From IMG/VR virus record IMGVR_UViG_2778261035_000005: a DNA stretch of 64,000 nt; one strand, 5' to 3'. The notes beneath the pieces are model-generated. The model was given only the letters and a program-made list of their open reading frames with translations. It did not search any database and was not told the DNA's origin. Source of the DNA: a virus. Lineage: Duplodnaviria > Heunggongvirae > Uroviricota > Caudoviricetes. The translations under genes and the position numbers were made by a program. The first letter of the stretch is position 1. Every line of letters starts with the position of its first letter. This document shows positions 23,475-36,900 of this stretch, one piece after another.

Positions 23475-23673
23475 ACGGGAGAAGGAAACACTTTATGAAA
23501 TCAGTAAGTGGCCGGAGTTCCCTGAGTACTGGAAGCCTAAAACGCGGGCTAAGTTAGAGCGGTTAGGGTTGGTTGCAAACGTTTCTGAAACGAGGGGGTC
23601 GGCCAACTACCAGTTAACTGATAAAGGGAAAGTATTGCTACAGCAATTAGTAGAATCAGGAGCGTTAAAATGA
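23458..23673 (+). CDS. Hypothetical small protein (71 aa)
   Basis: ORF chained by overlapping start/stop codons to its neighbours. Confidence 0.4.
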   Translation: MIVLSKREKETLYEISKWPEFPEYWKPKTRAKLERLGLVANVSETRGSANYQLTDKGKVLLQQLVESGALK

Positions 23674-23822
23674 TTCCATACATCTCATTAGCTTTTATGG
23701 GTGGCTTTCTTATCGGCTTCGGCATCTGTCGTGATTTAATTAAGCAGGAACTTAAAACCAAAACACTGTGCATCGGAAAGCGTGTGTATCGGGTAGTTCA
23801 TGAAACAAAGGTTAGAAAATGA
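23670..23822 (+). CDS. Small membrane protein (50 aa), paralogue of 23295-23474
   Basis: Same architecture and similar sequence (GFLIGFGIC...RVYRVV versus GFFIGIVVM...RIYRIV). Confidence 0.4.
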   Translation: MIPYISLAFMGGFLIGFGICRDLIKQELKTKTLCIGKRVYRVVHETKVRK

Positions 23823-24109: not shown

Positions 24110-24888
24110 AAACACAATGATAAGTATTTACTTACTTATCTTTTATGTATAAGATGACTTTGTTTTCGTTGAGACGCGACTGTTTGAACTTAAATACAAG
24201 TGCAAACGAAGAAGTCTATCTGGCAGTAGCCTAATAAGCCAAACACCAGCGAGGTCAGTTTCCAGCCTCGTTACCGAAATGGGACACACTGAGCGAGTGT
24301 GATTGCAGAACGCAGGAGGGAACATGAATGTTCCCTCCGATGAAGTAACAGAATGGGCGGTCAGTATATTTTCAACTCATATACGACTCCCGGATTCTTA
24401 TCCAATGACCGCCCATCCTGTTACGTCATTTTGTTCAATTATGTCGTTTATACTGGGTTAAAAAGCGGCGACGTAGCCCGGCTGGTATGGTTAGCCAGCA
24501 CACAACGTTGAGGCCATTACATTTTTATCAATTCTAAGGTTCTATTCACAGAGATACCGGCGAGCGTTGATATGTAACATGTTGGGCAAACATTCAATCG
24601 GAGTAGTGGCCTCAACGTTGTGAAGACAGGATAGTTGTGTAGGTTTAACCACTGTTGCCATTGGTGCCTGTTTTCACAACAAATGATTCCATACATCACA
24701 TTGTATAAATTACAAAGTAAGTGCAGTCCTCAGAAACATCATCTACTTAAAGATTTTGCCTTCTACTATTGAGCGAAGTCGAAAGCGTCTGGCACTAACG
24801 AAAAGTGCAAGTAGCGGTGCGTTTCCTGGCAGAAACTAAACCGTCGCGATTGGCACTGTTGAGTAATAAATACTGGCAGTGCCGAATT

Positions 24889-24963
24889 GATGGTGTAGCT
24901 CAGCGGTAGAGCAGTTGGCTGTTAACCAACTGGTCGGTGGTTCGAATCCACCCACCATCGCCA
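24889..24963 (+). tRNA. tRNA-Asn (anticodon GUU)
   Basis: Hand-folded cloverleaf: acceptor GATGGTG/CACCATC, D-arm GCTCAGCGGTAGAGC, anticodon loop CTGTTAA, T-loop TTCGAAT, 3-prime CCA. Confidence 0.8.
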
Positions 24964-24965
24964 AT

Positions 24966-25041
24966 GCCGGTTTAGCTCAGTTGGTAGAGCACCTGCCTTG
25001 TAAGCAGGATGTCAGCGGTTCGAATCCGTTAACCGGCACCA
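24966..25041 (+). tRNA. tRNA-Thr (anticodon UGU)
   Basis: Acceptor GCCGGTT/AACCGGC, D-arm GCTCAGTTGGTAGAGC, anticodon loop CTTGTAA, T-loop TTCGAAT, 3-prime CCA. Confidence 0.8.
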
Positions 25042-25254
25042 ACACAACAGGAAAGAGCATTGAGAACCGCCGAGACTGCCCTGTTTGAAGCGTAAGTCCG
25101 TGCAAACGTCATACAGTGCTCTTTTCGTTGTGGTGAATGCGGCTAAGCGCACGCGGGGAAATGGTTATATTGATCCTTTGTGATGACTATTGGCTCCGTC
25201 CACGGTGGATAACCAGCCAAAGGACACCGGGAAGCACCCGGCACCACAACAATT

Positions 25255-25341
25255 GGAGAGTAGGGAGCATGGTGCTCAAGCGGTCTTGAAAACCGTCCCA
25301 TTGCGCAAGCGATGATGGTTCGATTCCATTACTCTCCGCCA
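25255..25341 (+). tRNA. tRNA-Ser (anticodon UGA), type II with long variable arm
   Basis: Acceptor GGAGAGT/ACTCTCC, anticodon loop CTTGAAA, variable-arm hairpin GCGCAAGCG, T-loop TTCGATT, 3-prime CCA. Confidence 0.65.
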
Positions 25342-25496
25342 GACACAGCGTTGAGCGGTTTGGCCTTTTAATCACCCAGATTAAGACTCCGCTAACATAA
25401 ACCAGACCGCTCAACGCTGTGATAGACAATTACGGCAGACGTTCTTAACCATAGCTTGCTAACATCCTAGCAACACTTTTTTTCAGCGCAAAATTC

Positions 25497-25518
25497 AAAG
25501 GGGCTTCGGCCCCTTTTT
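25497..25518. terminator. Bidirectional rho-independent terminator
   Basis: AAAGGGGC-TTCG-GCCCCTTTTT, between the tRNA cluster and the 3-prime end of the minus-strand gene. Confidence 0.75.
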
Positions 25519-25525
25519 GGCTGGG

Positions 25526-26806
25526 TTAATTAAAACCGAATGAATCAAGTTCTGCTTTTAATTTATCGACCATTTTTTCAACTTCAACCACAATTTCGCC
25601 AATCACCTTTTCTTTGTGTTGATTAGAGCTAAGTTCAAAATAGGCGTTATATAACGCATAACGAGACAGAAAATTTCTAATCTCATTAGCGGGTCTAATG
25701 GTGTAGCCATCGGTTAACACGATATCGGTCTGTCTAGAGTGCTTCTCGTTGAGTTTTATTAGCCGCTTTATCTGTTTTTCATCCTTGAGCACTATCACTT
25801 TGTTAGCTGCAATTTCAAGCTCCCAGCCGACAAAATAACGCAGCGTAGAATTTAATTTAGCCACTTCCTCGGCTGCAATTTCCATTTTCAGCTCAATGTA
25901 GTTTCGCATATGCATAGGTAGGTCATTAAATCTTTGCAGCAAATGTTGTCGGCAGGGGTTGTTGTAAGACCAAAGAACTGCAAACGTAAGCCTATGATAA
26001 CAGCTTATCGCATTGGTATTACAGGCCGAATCACCAACAATCATGCGATCAACATAAAACTCTACGTCTTTTTGGTATTCTTTATTGAATATATCAGCGG
26101 CATAGGTGTCCAGGTAATGAACTTTAGATATTGCATCTTCAAAGAAAAGTTCATTTTCGAAGAAGTTGTATTTGTTCAGGAGACGATAAAGTTTCTTTGC
26201 GTCGTAGGTTTTGCTATTGTCGACATTAAGACCAAAAATAGCAATCAGCAGACTTACTTTTGGACTAATGCTGTTGCGCAGTTGTTCTATGTAAGATCTC
26301 TTTTCACTATCCGCAGATGACGGCAGATAGAAGTCTTTATCTACATAATTTAGAATTAAAATAATGTGGTTAACATACTTAATATAAACAGGGTTTTTTG
26401 TTGCATAGTAATAAACGCCCTTGACGACTTTTATATTCAATTTCAAATTGTACTGACTATCATCCAGTAAGGTTTTGTTAACATCCTCAAGTAATTTATT
26501 ATGCTGTTCAAGTAATATGCCGTACCATTCCTTAAAAGAAGATTTTTTCATTTCAAGAAGCGAAGCCGCCGTCAGCCTGGTCGCTCTCATTGCCGCCTTT
26601 GCACTATGCCTTGCCTCATAAGCGGCCCATGCTGTGGCTAAAAAGGCAAGTGAAGTAGCAAGCGTACCTATAACCTCTACGTTTTCCTTGACGGTATCCC
26701 AGAAAATAATCATCACTGTCCCAAGTATGAGGATTAACAAAACAGGCATTTTATCAGTGTCTTTGGTTAATTTTGAAACTGAATGATACCTAATCGACCA
26801 TACCAT
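25526..26806 (-). CDS. Hypothetical membrane-anchored protein
   Basis: Up to 426 aa; two N-terminal TM helices and a ~350-aa cytoplasmic domain with no motif I can place; AT-rich codon usage; start may be 26749 instead. Confidence 0.55.
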   Translation of the reverse strand: MVWSIRYHSVSKLTKDTDKMPVLLILILGTVMIIFWDTVKENVEVIGTLATSLAFLATAWAAYEARHSAKAAMRATRLTAASLLEMKKSSFKEWYGILLEQHNKLLEDVNKTLLDDSQYNLKLNIKVVKGVYYYATKNPVYIKYVNHIILILNYVDKDFYLPSSADSEKRSYIEQLRNSISPKVSLLIAIFGLNVDNSKTYDAKKLYRLLNKYNFFENELFFEDAISKVHYLDTYAADIFNKEYQKDVEFYVDRMIVGDSACNTNAISCYHRLTFAVLWSYNNPCRQHLLQRFNDLPMHMRNYIELKMEIAAEEVAKLNSTLRYFVGWELEIAANKVIVLKDEKQIKRLIKLNEKHSRQTDIVLTDGYTIRPANEIRNFLSRYALYNAYFELSSNQHKEKVIGEIVVEVEKMVDKLKAELDSFGFN

Positions 26807-27080
26807 TTCAGCTAGTTTAAAGCTGTCTTGCCGGTTCTAGTGTGTCAACCTCACAAAGCCATTTCTGCTTAGTAACCAAACACATTAAATAGGTAATGAC
26901 TCACCTATTCATTTTAGCTATAGTCACGACACTTACTCACTTGAAAGGACTCTATATGGGAAACAAACGTAAACAGGCGCGTCGCGCAGCTCGTCAGGCA
27001 GTGAAGTCAAAGCCACGCATCCACGGCTACGAAATTGACACAATCATCGTTAATGAACAGCAGTTGCACGAGGTGAAGTG

Positions 27081-27326
27081 ATGAAAGTCGTTATCTACGG
27101 ACGAGATAACTGCTCATACTGCAAACGTGCGGTCGAGCTGGCGAAGCAACTAAAGGGACATGGCTACGGTGATTATGAGTACATAAACATCACCACTGCC
27201 GGTATCGATAAGGAAAAACTTAGCGAAATTGTTGGTAAACCGGTAGAGACTATCCCCCAGGTGCTGATCGATGGCCAGCCGATTGGCGGATACACAGAGA
27301 TGGCATCTTTCGTAAGTTTCTTATAA
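27081..27326 (+). CDS. Glutaredoxin-like protein (phage NrdC/NrdH-like)
   Basis: Active-site CSYC near the N-terminus and conserved TIPQVLIDGQPIGG; 82 aa. Confidence 0.7.
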   Translation: MKVVIYGRDNCSYCKRAVELAKQLKGHGYGDYEYINITTAGIDKEKLSEIVGKPVETIPQVLIDGQPIGGYTEMASFVSFL

Positions 27327-27363
27327 GTAAAAGCCACATCTTTGTACATATAGTACATATAAC

Positions 27364-27388
27364 AAAAAAGGCCCATATGGGCCTTTTT
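27364..27388. terminator. Bidirectional rho-independent terminator
   Basis: A-tract, palindrome GGCCCATATGGGCC, T-tract. Confidence 0.7.
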
Positions 27389-27510
27389 CATAACTTCTAG
27401 CTAACCACTACAGTGGCTTAAAGACCACTTCACCCTTGCGTTCAGCTTCAGCTTTAGCAGTCATGAATCGTTTGATCATTTCGACTTTGCTAGCATGGAT
27501 AGTTTTAAAA

Positions 27511-28065
27511 TCAATCTTCCCTTTGTTTTGGGTAGTGTTGTGTTCGTATCGCATAGGAAGCTCCGTCATTTAAATAAGTTAGGCCACGCTCTTGTGTAAA
27601 TCTCTTCACATATCTCTTGTATGTGGCCATCAGTTCTTCGCGTTCTGCCGCAAAGAATAAAATCTGTATGCCTTCATTGTCGGCAACTTTGAGCATTAAG
27701 TCAACTAAAGTACCGTAAAGGTATTGAAGTTCACCTAAAGTAAGATTAAAAGACCCTTCGGGTTTGGCAAATACGTTAATTGGCTCTTCCGCTCCAAGAG
27801 CGACATTCTGGAGCTGTTCTTGCTGCCTGTCAAGTTGAATCATGTCCACAAAACTAACGACAGATACACACAACCCATAAACATCAGCACCTAACATATT
27901 ATGCATAGTTTCTGCGGCAACAGGATCTAAAGAAGGAGGGCAAAAGACTAAACGGTATCTAGCCTTACGAGCTTCATTGCCAGAGAAAACAAAGTCTATA
28001 TCTAAATATGACAGATCACCCGGCAATGAAGCCAAACCAGGTGTAACCAACTTATGCAAGTGCAT
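27511..28065 (-). CDS. Hypothetical protein
   Basis: 184-aa ORF on the opposite strand; no recognisable motif; a 47-aa ORF (27413-27553, minus) overlaps its 3-prime end. Confidence 0.45.
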   Translation of the reverse strand: MHLHKLVTPGLASLPGDLSYLDIDFVFSGNEARKARYRLVFCPPSLDPVAAETMHNMLGADVYGLCVSVVSFVDMIQLDRQQEQLQNVALGAEEPINVFAKPEGSFNLTLGELQYLYGTLVDLMLKVADNEGIQILFFAAEREELMATYKRYVKRFTQERGLTYLNDGASYAIRTQHYPKQRED

Positions 28066-28332
28066 CTGTCTCGAATCCCTCTTTATTAGTATAAGTTGTC
28101 TTATTGTACCCTACCAAACGTTTATATGCATTGTTATGTATTATTTTGATTTTCAATATTACCTCCTAGAACGAAGGGTAGATTTCAAAAAACGCACCCT
28201 CAATGATTCCATACCTACTATGTATGGAATCATTACTGAAAATGAGTTACTTTTACTCTTGATCCTATAAGAATCTATGCCTAATATACTGTTTACTTAT
28301 ACAGTGCATCGGCGTAACTCGGTGATTGTCAT

Positions 28333-29436
28333 ATGAAAAATAGCTTTGACAGAGCACGCGCTGCGGAGAACACCTCAAAAGAGGCGATTGAGTATCTCGA
28401 AAGAGCATCTCAAATGCAGGCCGTTATGATCTCCCAGGTCAGCAATGACATGAGATTCTCGGACGCATTCATGTTATTCACTCGCTTATCTCTGCTGATA
28501 ACAAGACGTCGGCCAGAGATCGCTGTTCATTGTATTTTGATACATGTTTTGCCGCACATTGCCGATGTAAAAGTAAGTGATATTAATAGGTTCATGGTGA
28601 ACCAACTGGTCAACCCACTAATACTGGATGGCAAAATTGTTATGGGTCGCCGCGTTTTCTCTCTGATGAAGCAGTTCCTCAGCTGGTGCGCCTTCCAGGG
28701 GATGATCGACGTGTCACCGTTAAACGATATGTCACTTAACAAAGTTGCCGGTGGCGCAAAGCCCACACCTCGCGAGCGGAAGCTAACCGACGCAGAGGTA
28801 TGGGTGTTCTGGAATATATGGGACTACTTCAATGTGTGTGCTGGTACAAAATGGGCGGCCAGGCTATGTCTTGTATCCGCAAGACGACCTGACGAAGTAC
28901 TGCGGGCTAAAAAAAGTGAGTTCAACCTCCAGCGTGGGGTTTGGAATCAAGGCAAGAGAAACAAATCAGCCCGTGAGCATTCTCTGCCTTTAAGCACATT
29001 AATGCGCACATGCATTGAAGAGTTATTCGAATATGGTAAAGGCAGCCAGTGGCTTGTGCCTTCGAATAAAAAAATCGGGAAAGATCTTCCGATGTCTAAA
29101 GTGGCAATAGCCCAGGCATTACGCCGTATCCTGGAACGACCAGAACTGATGGAGCTTGAGCCATTTACACCACGAGATTTGCGTCGTACTGCGCGTAGTT
29201 ACTTCCCAGCATTAGGCATAAGCCAGGAGGTATCACGTAAAATCATGAACCACAGTCTTGAGGGGATAGATCGGGTCTACGACCGGCACGATTATATGGA
29301 CGAGATGCGAGACGCCTTAGAAAGTTTCTCGACGTACATCGCATCAATCGTAGAGCAACCGGATTTAGACGAAATTGACCACAAATTCAAGGGAGATCGT
29401 CTATCGACAGAGCTTATTCGTGTAAATTTTTCATAG
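28333..29436 (+). CDS. Tyrosine-type site-specific recombinase / integrase
   Basis: C-terminal catalytic region with R...H..R...Y arrangement (RRPDE, TPRDLRRTARS, HSLEGIDRVYDRHDY). Confidence 0.7.
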   Translation: MKNSFDRARAAENTSKEAIEYLERASQMQAVMISQVSNDMRFSDAFMLFTRLSLLITRRRPEIAVHCILIHVLPHIADVKVSDINRFMVNQLVNPLILDGKIVMGRRVFSLMKQFLSWCAFQGMIDVSPLNDMSLNKVAGGAKPTPRERKLTDAEVWVFWNIWDYFNVCAGTKWAARLCLVSARRPDEVLRAKKSEFNLQRGVWNQGKRNKSAREHSLPLSTLMRTCIEELFEYGKGSQWLVPSNKKIGKDLPMSKVAIAQALRRILERPELMELEPFTPRDLRRTARSYFPALGISQEVSRKIMNHSLEGIDRVYDRHDYMDEMRDALESFSTYIASIVEQPDLDEIDHKFKGDRLSTELIRVNFS

Positions 29437-29817
29437 AGACTTTATGGCCTCAACAACCTTTTGTGATGCGCCTTTCTCTTTACCGAATCGCTCGTTATAT
29501 GCAGCAAGAACCTGTTTTTCGTCCTCGTTAAGAGGAGCAGTGCCTTCTTTGTATAAAAATGCTGCGAGTTCGGGTTGGCGTTCTTCCAGCACCATCATCA
29601 TAAGACGACTTGGCTCAATACCCAGTGCCAGCGCCAGCGGACGAACCTTATCGATAGGCAAAGGAATTTTGCCGCTTTTAATTAAAGAAAGGTTGTTGGC
29701 GTTTTTATACCCAATTGTTTTGGCTATCTGGGCCTGGCTCATAGGTGAGGATTCAATCAACCCTGCGATAAAAGCAGCGTAGCGACTTTCTATAAATTCA
29801 ATCTTGTTGTCAGACAT
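29431..29817 (-). CDS. XRE-family helix-turn-helix regulator
   Basis: HTH segment MSQAQIAKTIGYKNANNLSLIKSGK; convergent with and overlapping the recombinase 3-prime end. Confidence 0.65.
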   Translation of the reverse strand: MSDNKIEFIESRYAAFIAGLIESSPMSQAQIAKTIGYKNANNLSLIKSGKIPLPIDKVRPLALALGIEPSRLMMMVLEERQPELAAFLYKEGTAPLNEDEKQVLAAYNERFGKEKGASQKVVEAIKSL

Positions 29818-30379
29818 TGTTACAACCTTTGCGCGTTCAATTCTCTCTGGTAAGTGCTTACCGATATTACATCAAAGGTTAGGGTTGTAAAGCTATTATC
29901 ATTTTTTTCGGCAGGCACTTTAAAGACCGGACAAAGACCAATGCATGGTGAAAAACTAGCCCCAAATAGGTAAGAAAATTAACTTGCATCTAATATGGAT
30001 GTATTCAGTATTGATATAAATTTTAGTAGTATTCCTTACAATAGTATAAGTAAGAATGGATTGATTGAATGAACACCACTATTTCCAGCCTAATAGCTCT
30101 TGAGATCGGACACGTACAAAAATTAGCTGATGAGTGTGTAGCTGACATCCTCACCGAGCTACCGAATGAGCAGATTGAGGTTGGTGTGAATGACACAACT
30201 GGCTTTATATTCGAACTTAACAACAAACGCTTCACGCTTATCAATACCGGCTCCGGGTCTTTAGCCGTCAGAACCTGTTAATCCCTCTTCTACCTGCGCG
30301 AATGGCTTAGTTCCCTGTTCGCGCAGTGCTACATTAAACACACTAGTAAATAATTTGTTTTCATAACAAAGGATTAGCC

Positions 30380-32488
30380 ATGTCCAAAAAACGTTCCATC
30401 AAAGAGGTTCAGGACTTCCGTGACAGTGTAAAACGAGTAGTCGCTCTCCTTTCAGGTAAAAACATCCCTGTTGCAGAACGAGGGGACGACGCTTATGTAC
30501 GCTATAACGATGATGGAGAGCCAATTCTCGTAAACATCCCATCAATCCCAGATAACGCAACACCGGCATTGATGAATGCAGTACGCGGATTTCTAGATCA
30601 TGAAGTTGCTCACATTTTGTTTACCGATATTCATGTGTCCAACAAAATGAGAGAAAAAGGACACGTCCCTTCCTGGTCACTATGGAATGCCTTAGAAGAC
30701 GTGTTCATCGAGCGAAAAATGGGGCAGGTCTTTAACGGAACAAGACGTAATCTGATGGCAACTCAGCGCCTGATAATCGAAAAAGTCTTTAAACCAAAGG
30801 CTTCAGAGGCTATTACTTATTGTGGCAAAGATCAGCGCGCGCTTTTTCTAAACTTCTTTCTCTGTCCGGTTGTAAGAGCCTGGGATGGCCAAGCACCGTT
30901 CGTAGATTTCATGGATGAATACTGGCCTGTCATTGAGAAACCAATTTCATTATTAAAAGAACATGGTATCGATGTGGCCGTGCGTAACATGTCTTGCACC
31001 GAGGATTGTTTAAAGGTGGCTGCGACCATAGCTAAGATCCTCAAAGACACAGAAAGTGAAAGCAAAGGTAAGGAGTCAGCTCCGGGAAAAACTCCCGATC
31101 CTTCAGACGCTGACCAAGCGGATTCCTCTGGAGAAAGTAATGAAGACAATGAAGATCACAAGACACATGAGATGCTAGATAACCACATATCTATAGATGA
31201 TGAGTCACACGGTAAGTACATACATGATGATAACGATAGTGATGATTCAGATAATTCTGAATCATCAGAAACAATATTCGATGATACAAAAAATGATAAA
31301 GAGGTATTAGATTCTGATACTTCCAATAGCGCGACGACAGAAGCAACTACCTCGGATCACGAAAAAAGAAAAACGGCAGAAGACGGCTCTTCAGACATTC
31401 CCACTCCGTCCAAAATGAGTCTGGAAGAGGCTTTAGAGGAGCTTGATAGCATGGAAGATGAAGTCGGAGGCATGACAGAAGATGCACTATCCGAAACGAT
31501 TAAAAGCGAGTTAACAGAAAGCTCGAAAAGCGAATACAGGCCATACAATCGCTCATACGACTTCATCGGTTCGATTGATCAGGCAGAAGCCCATATCAAA
31601 CGGCTTATTAAAACATTCTCCGATATTGATTTAGGTGGATATCCAATCAGCCGTTATCGCATCGTTCCTGAAGGCAACCAACTCTTCGACAAATATATTG
31701 AAAAGCATCTTTCGTCAGGTGTTTCGTCGACGCTGGCAAAAGACCTGGAGCGTGCAATTGCAAGCAGAAACAGAGTTCAGTTTATACCGGGCCAGCGTCG
31801 GGGGCGCATTCATGGTTCTAGTATCTACAGATTAGCAATGAATGATGATCGCGTGTTTCGTAAAAAAGAAGAATCTAAGGCCGTTAACGCCTGTGTTCAA
31901 CAAGTGATTGATTTATCAGGTTCAATGAGCGGCGAAACGATTAAACTGGCTCTTGCAAGTGCATATACCATCGCCGATGCGCTTGATCGAATAAATGTTC
32001 CCAACATTATCACCGGCTTCACAACATTTGGTAGTCATATGGCAGCAGGAGAGCTTAAGGCAATCAAGTATGAGTTCTCTCGCTTTGAATCTTTAATGCT
32101 ACCTATCATCAAAAATTGGAATGAAAAGGCAAATTCTCGCGAAGTTCGCTCACGTATGGGGTGCGTAGGCTACACATTCCCACTTCTTAATAACGTGGAT
32201 GGTGAAAGCATAGCCAGCCTTGCATCGTTATTTTCTGGTCGCATGGAGGACAAGAAGATCATGCTTGTTCTAAGCGATGGCGCGCCGTGGGCTGTTGGGA
32301 GAGGTTTTGACGCTCATTTGCGTTCGGTTGCGAAGCAAATTGAAACGCAGACTGACATTGATTTGATGGCAATTGGCATCATGACTGACGCACCGGAGAG
32401 ATTTTACGCAAACCATGCCCTAGTAACGAGCGTTGATAGTCTTGGTTCATCTGTAGTTACTGAACTATCTCGTATCATTTTGAAGTGA
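30380..32488 (+). CDS. CobT-like protein with acidic linker and C-terminal von Willebrand factor A domain
   Basis: 702 aa; long Asp/Glu/Ser-rich low-complexity stretch; MIDAS motif DLSGSMSG in the C-terminal domain. Confidence 0.65.
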   Translation: MSKKRSIKEVQDFRDSVKRVVALLSGKNIPVAERGDDAYVRYNDDGEPILVNIPSIPDNATPALMNAVRGFLDHEVAHILFTDIHVSNKMREKGHVPSWSLWNALEDVFIERKMGQVFNGTRRNLMATQRLIIEKVFKPKASEAITYCGKDQRALFLNFFLCPVVRAWDGQAPFVDFMDEYWPVIEKPISLLKEHGIDVAVRNMSCTEDCLKVAATIAKILKDTESESKGKESAPGKTPDPSDADQADSSGESNEDNEDHKTHEMLDNHISIDDESHGKYIHDDNDSDDSDNSESSETIFDDTKNDKEVLDSDTSNSATTEATTSDHEKRKTAEDGSSDIPTPSKMSLEEALEELDSMEDEVGGMTEDALSETIKSELTESSKSEYRPYNRSYDFIGSIDQAEAHIKRLIKTFSDIDLGGYPISRYRIVPEGNQLFDKYIEKHLSSGVSSTLAKDLERAIASRNRVQFIPGQRRGRIHGSSIYRLAMNDDRVFRKKEESKAVNACVQQVIDLSGSMSGETIKLALASAYTIADALDRINVPNIITGFTTFGSHMAAGELKAIKYEFSRFESLMLPIIKNWNEKANSREVRSRMGCVGYTFPLLNNVDGESIASLASLFSGRMEDKKIMLVLSDGAPWAVGRGFDAHLRSVAKQIETQTDIDLMAIGIMTDAPERFYANHALVTSVDSLGSSVVTELSRIILK

Positions 32489-33999: not shown

Positions 34000-36900
34000 A
34001 TGAAGGCTCTGATGGTTCGAACTGACTTCTCTCTTGGGGAGTCGGCTCTAAAAGCAGAAAACGCGGTGAAGATTGCCAGAGAAGCTGGCTACACCGCTGT
34101 AATTTCGGCAGATAGCATGAATATTGCGAGTGTTATTCCACTACAACGTGCCGCTGGTGACGACATGGCGGTTATTTGTGGTGTGAAACTAAACATTGTT
34201 GATGATCCCACATACGAGCACCGGGCTAAACTTGCTAAAGAGTCTATGGGATGTATGGAATCATTAGAGCGTGGGCGGAACTACTCCTTTACCGCTCTAA
34301 TTAAAAATGAGCAGGGATATCGAGACATCTGCGAACTAATGACGGCGGCCAACACACGAGAACAGTTCTACTTTGTACCGCGTCTCTCGCTCGAACAGTT
34401 GGTTTCTACATATGCCAAAGGCAACATCATCCTGCTCACTGCCGACATCGGTAGCGTGTTCCAACGCAACGATTTTGCAAAAATCATAAGCTCACTGATT
34501 ACAGCGGGTGGAAAAGACAACTTCTATAGTGTGGTTTATCCGCACCCTACCCCATTCTACGACCAGATTAACGTCCGGGCGATGAAAGTCGCCAGCGCAC
34601 TGAAAATAGAGCCAGTAGCGTTCTATCCCGCTTATTACGAATCGATCGACGATGCAGACATTAAAGACATTGCGCACATGGTTACGAACAACATCAAAAT
34701 CGACCAGCCGCATCGTCTGCGTATCCCCCACCAGCGAGATAACGCCGTCAATGGTCGCCGCCATCTCCTTGAGGCGCTGAAAGCCTTCTCCGTTCGCATG
34801 GATGTGCCGGTAACAGCTGCAATGGCCTCAACAACGCAGGATACCATTATCGATGCCTGCACATGGCGCTGGCATGAATTGCCACCAGCACTGCCAAAGA
34901 TGGCAGACGACGAGCCTGCAACGCTGATGAAACTGGCCGTTGCTGGGCTGCGTAAACGTCTTACCACAAAAGAGTTTGGCTACACACCACCGGCTTCTGA
35001 GAACAGGGTTTATGTTGAGCGACTTAAGTACGAAATGGACACGCTTACTCGCCTGGGATTTTGTGGTTACTTCCTGATGGTACGCGATCTGATGAATCAC
35101 AGCCGTGAAACTGGCATTCCTGTCGGGCCTGGTCGTGGTTCCTCCGCTGGCTCTTTGGTGGCATGGTGCATAGGCATAACCAACGTCGACCCTATCCGTC
35201 ACGGTCTTCTGTTTGAACGTTTCATCAACCCTGAGCGTCTCGACTTGCCAGATGCGGACTTGGACTTCAGCCAGGCACGTCGCCATGAGGTGATCGAGTA
35301 TCTGAATGAACGCTACGGCGAAGATTACGTTGCAGGCATTCCGAACTTCACCTACCTGGGCGCGGCCTCTGCACTACGTGACACCGCTCGTATTTATGGT
35401 GTGGAGTCCGCAGATATGGCGGTATCAAAAGAACTGAAGAACGTCGAGGATGATAGCCTTCCATTGGAAGAGCTGCGCGAACAACTGGCAAGCCTCGACA
35501 AATACGCGACAAAATATCCTGATGCATTCAATGCAGCCTGCAAGTTACAAAGCCTTATGCGTGGCTATGGTAGACATGCGGCAGGGATGATCGTAGCAGG
35601 TGTTCCTCTGACAGAACGAACACCGGTTGAACGACGTGGTGACGCGCGTTGTATCGCATTTGACAAGCGTTACTGCGAGGCTATGGGCCTAATTAAGCTG
35701 GACGTACTTGGCCTGGCGACTCTCGATTTGCTCGATAGTGCAAAACGCTACATTAAAGAGAACACAGGTGAGGATATCAATCTTGATGCCATTTCTCTTG
35801 AAGATCGCAAGGTGCTGGATGGTTTTGCTGCTGGGTACACTCAAGGTGTTTTCCAGCTTGAATCAGGCCCAATGCGCAAGCTGCTTAAAGATTTAGGTGG
35901 TGGAATTGAGCCAATGAGCTTTAAAACGGTCGTTGCTACGACTGCGCTCTTCCGGCCGGGGCCAATTCAGTCAGGCATGTTGGATGATTATGTTTCTGTC
36001 GCCAAAGGCTTTATGACGCCGGAATCATTACACCCCGTTCTTGATGAACTTACCGCAGAAACAAATGGCGTGATTCTTTATCAGGAACAGACGATGAACG
36101 CGACTCGATTGCTTGCGGGCTTCACAATGGCTGAAGCTGACGGCGTTCGTAAAGCGATCGGCAAAAAAGACATGGAGAAAATGAAGAGCATGGGTGAGAA
36201 GTTCATCGTTCAGGCTCAAGCTGGCTGGATAGACGTTGAGCTGGAAGATGGCACTACACAGCGCATTCACCGTGCGGAACATTTTAAATGCGAAGACGGA
36301 ACACTGAAAACTGTCGAAGAGGCGCTTGAACACGGCGCAAAACTACCTATAAACGCAGTACGCGTGACAGCGTCACACCCAGGGCTATCAGAGATGAAAG
36401 CGAAGGAGATCTGGACCGCATTCGAAAAAAATGGTGCCTACCAGTTCAACAAATCACACTCTGTTGCTTACTCCTTGATCAGTTATCAATCTATGTGGTT
36501 GAAAACTCATTATCCCGCAGAGTTTTTCGCTGCTGCTCTCACTATTCTTGGCGAAGATAAACACCAGGGGCTGGTTAAAGATGCGCTGACCTATGGTATT
36601 CGCGTATTGCCACCAGACGTTAACGTGTCATCCAACCGAATCGAGATCCGCACGCTTGAAGATGGCAGCCAGGTGCTGTATGCGCCCTTCTCTGCTGTGA
36701 AGGGGTGTTCTGAGAATGGCTGCCAAGCCATCATGAGAGCGCGAGAAAAAGTTGGCGGCAAATTCGAGTCACTGGCGCAATTCGAAGAAGCTGTCGAGAA
36801 ACGTGCCTGTAATAGTCGAGTGCGCGAATCGCTGCAAAAAGTAGGGGCGTTTGCATCCATCGAGCCAGGTAGTCTGCCAGCAACTGATCCAGAGCGCCTA

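Follow-up and report, generated by a model that had tools for sequence, protein, structure and literature searches.

A putative AbiC/AbiP-family gene and a two-gene moron in two variable slots beside the glutaredoxin gene of an SSU5-type phage-plasmid

What are the two AT-rich genes that lie on the minus strand between the tRNA cluster and the tyrosine recombinase of an SSU5-type phage-plasmid, and what could they do for the element that carries them? The question arises from the window, by which we mean the whole stretch of 64,000 nucleotides analysed here (IMG/VR virus record IMGVR_UViG_2778261035_000005, Caudoviricetes). The original prediction, made from the letters alone, had seen in it a tRNA-adjacent island with possible defence or exclusion functions. 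Both of its open reading frames (ORFs) are there, at 25526-26806 (426 amino acids, aa) and 27511-28065 (184 aa). We argue that two independent moron slots probably flank the glutaredoxin gene (grx) in the lysogeny-control region, slot 1 encoding a protein of the AbiC/AbiP family and slot 2 holding a translationally coupled operon for the 184-aa protein and a 48-aa partner (the 184/48 operon), and that both would act in the lysogen.

The window belongs to a phage-plasmid of the SSU5/pHCM2 type and matches Escherichia phage Cyrano (pLF82) and other relatives of that type. Positions 24880-28340 are 100% identical to the E. coli plasmid pWP4-S18-ESBL-07_2 (NZ_AP022089.1, 110 kb, non-mobilizable), and positions 27062-30500 share 98.5% DNA identity with Cyrano. 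The genes are arranged in the order DNA ligase, small genes, tRNA-Asn/Thr/Ser, slot 1, glutaredoxin, slot 2, tyrosine recombinase (integrase), helix-turn-helix (HTH) repressor and CobT-like protein, with coordinates collected in Table 1. The glutaredoxin and the recombinase are thus found where they had been predicted, and grx is present in all relatives compared.

The large protein of slot 1, in which no motif had been placed before, can be assigned to a superfamily after all. Its direct match to PF16872 (putAbiC) scores 20.1-20.2 bits (E 8-9e-4, residues 143-218 of the 426-aa ORF), below the cutoff of 22, and 8 of 29 close relatives match putAbiC independently (best E 1.5e-5). A word-indexed search delimits a family of 70 clusters, all from Enterobacterales and mostly on contigs of ~105-112 kb, and an exhaustive profile search of 1.84 billion representatives returned just 89 related cluster representatives, so that the superfamily is a small one. 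Among 63 full-length members of the superfamily, 52 match PF16872 (best E 1.2e-13), 6 match the PADLOC AbiC model (best E 1.3e-6) and 4 match AbiP; this PADLOC model (PDLC02343) is a detection model and not a biological defining feature. When distant members were tested singly, nine of ten cleared the Pfam cutoff, and the domain lay at a corresponding place along each protein. Comparison of the close clade with the distant, PF16872-positive clade by hhalign gives a probability of 100% and E 1.4e-46 over 407 columns, and the homology therefore covers the whole protein, including the transmembrane (TM) hairpin. The putAbiC core can be followed over residues 79-203 (LLEQHN, a Y..HI..IL.Y.DK.FY block, R...I......IA..GL and an FFE block), and the residues invariant across the superfamily, H83, Y125 and F196 in the 407-aa numbering, are kept. 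Pfam, profile search and hhalign together point to a putative, strongly diverged member of the AbiC/AbiP superfamily with AbiC architecture; as a relative that lies below the Pfam cutoff and is PADLOC-negative, it is new.

The surroundings of other members are consistent with this assignment. A tblastn match in a Pantoea plasmid carries the PGAP annotation 'putative phage abortive infection protein'. A distant member on Citrobacter and related chromosomes (loci L024/L025, 8001-9278) lies in an integrative mobilizable element with integrase, MobA and TraD, and directly adjoins a Lamassu-type operon (LmuB_C/MC3/CTD7) and a DUF6602 gene; a Pectobacterium homolog lies ~6 kb from an AAA_15/AAA_21 ATPase gene. 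Full-length alleles are known from Escherichia, Enterobacter, Klebsiella, Salmonella, Cronobacter and Pantoea, and their TM anchor is 97% conserved; truncated homologs are also found in databases. Abi_C (PF14355), the HEPN C-terminal domain of AbiJ/SadR, shares only its name: it is an unrelated HEPN RNase family, and the window protein does not match it. NCBIfam gave no match for either large cargo protein, and literature searches on PF16872 and DUF5486 found no papers.

Three rival starts compete for the AbiC-like gene, namely M1 of the longest ORF, M20, which is backed by homologs, and M32, the RefSeq/PGAP choice in NZ_AP022089.1 (53628-54815). We consider M20 (26749; 407 aa) the most likely true start, because homologs down to 34% identity open with MP(V/I)L and a hydrophobic helix at the equivalent position and because a -10-like box, ending at 26783, sits downstream of M1. 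A start at M32 would cut away most of TM1, a helix that is conserved at the protein level. Database entries of the family are annotated at 394 to 445 aa. In the 407-aa numbering, hydropathy peaks cover residues 2-17 and 24-44 and none occurs elsewhere. Since the loop between the two helices is acidic (charge -2) and the segment after TM2 is basic (+5), the positive-inside rule would place the large C-terminal domain in the cytoplasm, as had been supposed along with the two N-terminal TM helices. An AlphaFold2 model shows the N-terminal helices and a helical domain, with a predicted TM-score (pTM) of 0.70.

Slot 1 itself extends from 25521/25522, just past a terminator, to 27062-27092 at the start of grx, and homology to Cyrano and pMB3825A_2 stops at 25518-25521. 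The terminator hairpin has a GC stem between A and T runs, 8 nt past the AbiC-like stop, and folds on both strands (minus strand -13.2 kcal/mol, z = -2.5), which agrees with the bidirectional terminator proposed at this place. The small basic ORF described between the cargo genes does exist, but it is not a gene of its own. Positions 26933-27050 match the 5' end of phoH by blastn, the encoded protein resembles PhoH (Table 1), and because relatives such as pEh65_1 and pHCM2 carry an intact phoH-gp49-grx arrangement, the ORF is best explained as the scar of a phoH-gp49 deletion. As a phoH remnant, it was rejected as a working partner gene.

All nine recovered SSU5-type viral contigs carry an AbiC-like gene in this same tRNA-proximal slot, at 37-76% identity. 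Compared with one of the IMG/VR relatives (L029), the DNA of positions 24936-27304 is 88.8% identical while the flanks are 97-98.5% identical, and the TM anchor is 97% identical while the C-terminal segments fall to 45-65%. The divergence of the AbiC-like protein is thus concentrated in its predicted cytoplasmic C-terminal half. Two relatives hold a different cargo in slot 1, a minus-strand family of 302-304 aa, whose copies in CMS-2020a (L002, 4126-5034) and Klebsiella pJN2-26 (L003, 3478-4392) are 39% identical. Both copies contain an RH(T/I)IVHN motif that may recall the HEPN Rx4H signature, and neither Pfam nor PADLOC returned anything significant for this family.

The second slot runs from 27304 at the 3' end of grx to 28184-28202 by a conserved palindrome, and its gene is not alone. 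A PHROG scan picked up a 53-aa ORF (27408-27569) overlapping the 3' end of the 184-aa gene, and the start of this ORF is placed at M6 (MRYE...; 27408-27554) because small proteins of Xenorhabdus and Yersinia with 51-73% identity fix it there. The resulting 48-aa gene, missed in the original prediction, overlaps the 184-aa gene by 44 nt. An AGAGGGA Shine-Dalgarno sequence lies between a promoter candidate (28088-28117) and the start of the 184-aa gene. A terminator at 27365-27388, also unreported before and stronger than that at 25497-25518, separates the operon from the convergent grx.

To what extent the two genes belong together is best seen in other genomes. Homologs of the 184-aa protein lie on Xenorhabdus and Yersinia chromosomes between unrelated housekeeping genes, each followed by an overlapping small gene. 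Among the 185,579 species' genomes scanned, the small gene accompanies the large one at 10 of 10 loci and always has a length of 48 aa. The two genes share 23-38 nt there, and in nine of the ten loci GGAG stands 6 nt before the small gene's ATG, as it does in the window; SSU5 backbone genes are nearby in just one of the ten. The further a large protein has diverged from its counterpart in the window, the further its small partner has diverged too (r = 0.96 between the two identities). pHCM2 of S. Typhi CT18 and a Klebsiella plasmid carry 35-38%-identical alleles of the large protein in the same grx-integrase slot, followed by a homologous 39-41-aa gene; the pHCM2 version consists of a 163-aa protein and the small gene. 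Two other genomes carry the pair at the border of a lambdoid prophage, immediately adjoining an integrase that belongs to this prophage and is a different one; one of these two copies also adjoins a Bor gene, and a third copy is next to dinI. The module thus occurs in phage-plasmids, at the integrase end of lambdoid prophages and at bare chromosomal sites. Among 50,697 phage records searched by tblastn with both proteins, Cyrano alone was found. These comparisons show that the 184-aa gene is half of a mobile, strictly co-inherited and co-diverging two-gene moron.

Profile searches tell less about function. Eleven of 13 small-protein homologs match DUF5486, all below threshold. The fold of the 184-aa protein is weakly GNAT-like in its predicted model, and a search of BFVD with this model returned weak matches, mostly unnamed.

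Published expression data for the gene of slot 2 come from Cyrano. Its CYRAN_43 encodes a protein identical to the 184-aa protein and is listed among the morons; in LB cultures of LF82 its transcription exceeds the Cyrano median 723-fold (Misson et al., PLoS Pathog 2023, PMC9928086). This is the highest value in Cyrano, second to hokD alone among all LF82 prophage genes (PMC9928086). In the S1 Table of that study CYRAN_43 has an fpkm (fragments per kilobase per million) of ~7,084, compared with 96 for the repressor, 50 for the integrase and 13 for grx, and its log2 values are 11.5-14.9 in all ten samples (PMC9928086). Cyrano also makes virions, is inducible by ciprofloxacin and is maintained at ~5.5 copies per cell (PMC9928086). 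Since Cyrano lacks the AbiC-like gene yet forms virions, this gene is not needed for the lytic cycle.

That both slots vary among near-identical elements, as the original prediction had expected, is evident from comparison of the relatives, for which we give protein identity to the window of ligase, integrase and repressor, in this order. Cyrano (99, 100 and 100%) has an empty slot 1 with gp49 retained and the 184/48 module in slot 2, and CMS-2020a (99, 100 and 98%) has an unrelated 302-aa gene in slot 1 and a YafO-toxin cassette in slot 2. Slot 2 is empty both in pMB3825A_2 (96, 99 and 100%) and in IMG/VR L029 (99, 99 and 100%), which hold AbiC-like alleles of 35% and 76% identity, respectively, in slot 1. 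The more distant pEh65_1 (91, 86 and 66%) combines an 82% allele and intact phoH-gp49 with a YafO cassette. Backbones that are 96-100% identical in these three proteins therefore differ in both slots, and the two cargos vary independently of each other. Neither cargo is uniformly conserved or related in sequence to a structural or metabolic protein. The AbiC-like gene is a dispensable and often replaced cargo of a fixed hotspot.

Both cargo genes are compositionally foreign, and the AT-rich codon usage ascribed to them is real: their GC content at third codon positions (GC3) is 0.395 for the 407-aa gene and 0.351 for the 184-aa gene, compared with 0.50-0.57 for ligase, grx and integrase. The overall GC of 0.379 places the 407-aa gene in the lowest 1.8% of windows of the same size. 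In the relatives, the YafO-family toxin gene of slot 2 (L002, 5549-6577; L003, 6061-7518; L006, 2158-3089) follows a gene for an unannotated protein of ~175-205 aa, and pJN2-26 additionally holds a colicin E1 immunity-like gene in this slot.

The backbone is far more widespread than either cargo. Of 5,426 complete E. coli genomes, 252 have the integrase, plasmid-borne every time, and ~790 PLSDB records contain it at >=60% identity. In the same set of E. coli genomes the AbiC-like gene (this allele group) occurs in 8 and the 184-aa family in 9, with both together in at least two. PLSDB holds 140 records of the AbiC-like gene, 101 of them near full length, and 56 of the 184-aa family.

How could the two cargos act? 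We propose that the AbiC-like protein would be made in the lysogen, that its conserved membrane hairpin and putAbiC core may serve as the effector and that its variable C-terminal region may recognise a product of a superinfecting phage. Activation might then arrest the phage late in its development or cost the host its viability, as has been reported for AbiC and AbiP (AbiC is reported to reduce capsid protein), and clones carrying the phage-plasmid would thereby be protected. The 184-aa and 48-aa proteins could form a complex that acts in lysogeny, whether in exclusion or defence, in addiction or in host modulation. For the AbiC-like gene, a defence role is supported by homology to AbiC and AbiP and by the distant member beside a Lamassu-type system; this part of the original guess gained ground for the large protein, but the 184-aa protein has no defence homology. 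A moron with extreme expression in the lysogen fits the idea of defence or exclusion without proving it.

Several points weigh against this proposal. The Pfam score of the AbiC-like protein, 20.1 bits, is below the gathering cutoff of 22, and PADLOC gave no match for it at E <= 1. A lactococcal AbiC-like protein with 38% identity to AbiC was inactive against the phages tested (PMC11381338). Searches of Pfam, PADLOC, NCBIfam and PDB relate the 184/48 pair to no family of defence proteins, toxins or antitoxins. The expression data are those of Cyrano and not of this plasmid, although the region is 98.5% identical, and very high expression is unusual for a toxin-antitoxin (TA) operon.

A more novel reading of slot 2, possible though less likely than not, is that the 184/48 operon would be an unrecognised two-protein system, for exclusion or defence or of a new TA type, which temperate phages and phage-plasmids of Enterobacterales, including pHCM2, carry beside their integrases and which would be their dominant product in lysogeny. 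TA and defence functions can coexist.

It is rather unlikely that the operon is a TA (addiction) module proper, in which one protein neutralises the other and the low-copy phage-plasmid is stabilised. The organisation is that of type II TA systems, with two small overlapping genes inherited as a unit in unrelated contexts, and the bicistronic layout with its conserved Shine-Dalgarno sequence, the pairing of an acidic large with a basic small protein, their co-divergence and the mobility of the module would all suit addiction, as would the YafO-family toxin cassette in the same slot of relatives. Cyrano, too, has several other TA modules expressed as morons. However, these TA operons reach 9-60-fold (PMC9928086), and the 723-fold expression of CYRAN_43 is far above them. 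Moreover, the pair shows no toxin or antitoxin similarity in the four databases searched, no DNA-binding antitoxin domain for autoregulation is evident from the same profile searches, and an addiction role is not obvious for chromosomal copies that sit between housekeeping genes.

Alternatively, the 184-aa protein might be a GNAT-type, acyltransferase-like enzyme or binding protein that alters host physiology (lysogenic conversion), with the 48-aa protein as cofactor or regulator and no role in phage-phage conflict. We regard this as unlikely. The weakly GNAT-like predicted fold would suit it, but the Q/R-x-x-G-x-G/A motif of GNAT proteins for binding coenzyme A (CoA; pyrophosphate-binding) is absent in 39 of 40 sequences of the family, no acetyltransferase family is among the Pfam matches of 27 members, and PDB returned no sequence match.

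For slot 1, the alternative is that the AbiC-like gene is a decaying or non-defensive passenger, for example an inactive relic or a membrane protein for lysis timing, superinfection immunity or partition of the phage-plasmid. Homology is no guarantee of activity, as the inactive lactococcal protein illustrates; slot 1 bears a deletion scar in the phoH remnant, and truncated homologs exist. These observations have to be set against an intact ORF with a confident model, and against full-length alleles that persist across six Enterobacterales genera with the TM anchor 97% conserved and the invariant residues kept. Nor does the element need the gene for its own cycle, since Cyrano makes virions and keeps ~5.5 copies per cell without it. 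We therefore doubt that the gene is a mere passenger.

Finally, the original prediction implied a genomic island that had entered a tRNA gene with the help of the adjacent recombinase. The closeness of three tRNAs and a recombinase and the tRNA-Thr-derived repeat around the Thr-Ser spacer might hint at this, but we consider it highly improbable. The tRNAs, grx, recombinase and repressor stay in relatives without either cargo gene, the recombinase is on plasmids in all 252 E. coli genomes that have it, and each cargo varies without regard to the other. The cargo borders, moreover, consist of a terminator, both ends of grx and a palindrome instead of tRNA-derived repeats. Tyrosine recombinase and tRNAs thus form part of the conserved backbone of the phage-plasmid family and are not island borders.

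Table 1. Features of the window between the tRNA cluster and the repressor gene
Feature	Position	Strand	Basis or remark
tRNA-Asn (GTT)	24889-24963	+	ARAGORN, Rfam
tRNA-Thr (TGT)	24966-25041	+	ARAGORN, Rfam
tRNA-Ser (TGA)	25255-25341	+	ARAGORN, Rfam
Very stable hairpin, 20-bp near-perfect stem	25344-25421	+	-41.2 kcal/mol, z = -10.75; directly 3' of tRNA-Ser
Terminator-like hairpin AAAGGGGC-TTCG-GCCCCTTT + T run	25497-25518	both	Left boundary of slot 1
Putative AbiC/AbiP-family (putAbiC, PF16872) protein, 407 aa from M20	25526-26749 (ORF to 26806)	-	Slot 1 cargo
phoH remnant, first 34 codons	26956-27081	+	88% identity to PhoH of pJN2-26, BLASTP E 1e-17
GrxA-type glutaredoxin (grx)	27078-27326	+	Pfam Glutaredoxin E 6.5e-11; backbone gene dividing slot 1 from slot 2
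Strong bidirectional terminator AAAAAGGCCC-AUAU-GGGCCUUUUU	27365-27388	both	z about -3.6
48-aa basic protein (isoelectric point, pI, 9.9), DUF5486-like	27408-27554	-	Second operon gene; PHROG 2140 E 3.8e-14
184-aa acidic protein (pI 5.1)	27511-28065	-	First operon gene; 100% identical to CYRAN_43 of Cyrano
Sigma-70-like promoter candidate, TTGGTA, 18 nt, TATACT	28088-28117	-	Consensus match only; 22 nt upstream of 184-aa start
Palindrome, two inverted copies of 13-mer AATGATTCCATAC, 7-nt spacer	28202-28234		~100 nt upstream of integrase gene
Tyrosine recombinase (integrase)	28333-29436	+	Pfam, PHROG; lysogeny/maintenance backbone module 28333-29817
HTH repressor	29431-29817	-	Pfam, PHROG; backbone lysogeny/maintenance module

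The tRNA cluster forms the left landmark of slot 1 and is kept in relatives; the cluster that had been placed upstream is confirmed by ARAGORN and Rfam, with three tRNAs (Asn, Thr, Ser). A spacer of 182 nt between tRNA-Thr and tRNA-Ser (25056-25237) is missing in Cyrano, whose two tRNAs stand 8 nt apart. In the window, the 3' end of tRNA-Thr recurs as an imperfect direct repeat of 23 nt on either side of the Thr-Ser spacer, here taken as 205 nt. CMS-2020a likewise has a long Thr-Ser spacer and an additional tRNA-Tyr. Positions 25109-25277 give an Rfam match to the small RNA STnc100 near threshold (44.1 bits compared with a cutoff of 47, E 2e-7). The tRNA-Asn/tRNA-Thr pair (24889-25041) has ~89-91% DNA identity to the tRNA cluster of the unrelated P1/P7/D6 phage-plasmids, which suggests either exchange between phage-plasmid families or a common host origin. 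The hairpin directly after tRNA-Ser falls inside a block 96.8% identical to Cyrano, and an arm resembling it (CACAACGTTGAGGCC) makes another inverted repeat upstream of the tRNAs. This repeat (24501-24520/24603-24622) is one of two long inverted repeats, the other being 24340-24363/24406-24429, in the ~780 bp before the tRNAs (24110-24888), a stretch with no convincing ORF and no significant Rfam family.

At the other end of the locus, slot 2 ends on the right at the palindrome that precedes the integrase gene. This palindrome is kept in Cyrano, CMS-2020a, pMB3825A_2, pEh65_1 and pHCM2. The 13-mer from which it is built, AATGATTCCATAC, has five exact copies in the window (23669-23681, 24682-24694, 28202-28214, and in reverse complement 28222-28234 and 34253-34265), a count reached in none of 100 shuffles. 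Two of the copies overlap the ATG starts of small ORFs beginning MIPYI. The copies could be dispersed operators or recombinase core sites; such a set is more likely than the ends of an invertible or excisable segment, which fits less well, because the sites are dispersed and conserved whatever the cargo.

Why would these two slots matter? Phage-plasmids of the SSU5/pHCM2 type are common in clinical E. coli, Klebsiella, Shigella and Salmonella Typhi, and published defence screens of them report few systems. A DefenseFinder survey of the SSU5 group lists AbiH, PrrC, PD-T4-3 and others, with zero systems in pHCM2-like elements, and the words 'AbiC' and 'hotspot' are absent from its main text. Our results show that the tRNA-side hotspot often holds highly diverged AbiC-family genes that PADLOC models miss, and the poorly understood lactococcal Abi family is thereby extended into enterobacterial temperate elements. 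The natural allelic series, with 35-100% identity on identical backbones, could be used for specificity studies. The 184-aa gene is the more interesting lead of the two cargos: the most strongly transcribed lysogeny gene of Cyrano is half of a conserved, mobile two-gene unit with a candidate function in exclusion, addiction or host modulation.

Among known systems, the slot 1 protein is closest to AbiC (Prf) and AbiP of Lactococcus lactis. In each case a single gene on a mobile element encodes an N-terminal membrane anchor and an all-helical soluble domain for which there is no solved structural homolog, and published AbiC has two TM helices and an extramembrane domain, whereas AbiP has one TM helix. 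AbiC is 344 aa long. The 407-aa protein is larger and very diverged, comes from an Enterobacterales host, and is encoded at a fixed hotspot of a temperate phage-plasmid, unlike the AbiC gene of a dairy plasmid.

The slots themselves resemble the defence hotspots of prophages, such as those of P2/P4 and the lambdoid moron sites by int (for the general concept see PMC13586616). Both are fixed positions between conserved backbone genes that hold alternative, unrelated, AT-rich cassettes on the opposite strand, with their own promoters and terminators and with turnover faster than that of the backbone; the slots described here differ in belonging to SSU5-type phage-plasmids.

The 184/48 pair differs from type II TA systems, including TacAT/KacAT, in lacking TA homology, a ribbon-helix-helix or HTH antitoxin and the GNAT CoA motif. 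Its gene order is also unusual for a GNAT system: GNAT toxin genes follow their antitoxin gene, whereas here the GNAT-like 184-aa gene comes first and its partner is just 48 aa. The 184-aa gene is known from the literature as an unnamed, highly expressed moron, while its bicistronic nature, wider family, integrase-proximal recurrence, presence in pHCM2 and fold appear to be undescribed so far in the literature searched. Its closest counterpart is CYRAN_43 of the E. coli LF82 phage-plasmid Cyrano, the same protein in the same slot. The Cyrano record annotates only this gene there and the paper calls it 'Hypothetical protein'; to it we add the 48-aa gene as the second member of the unit.

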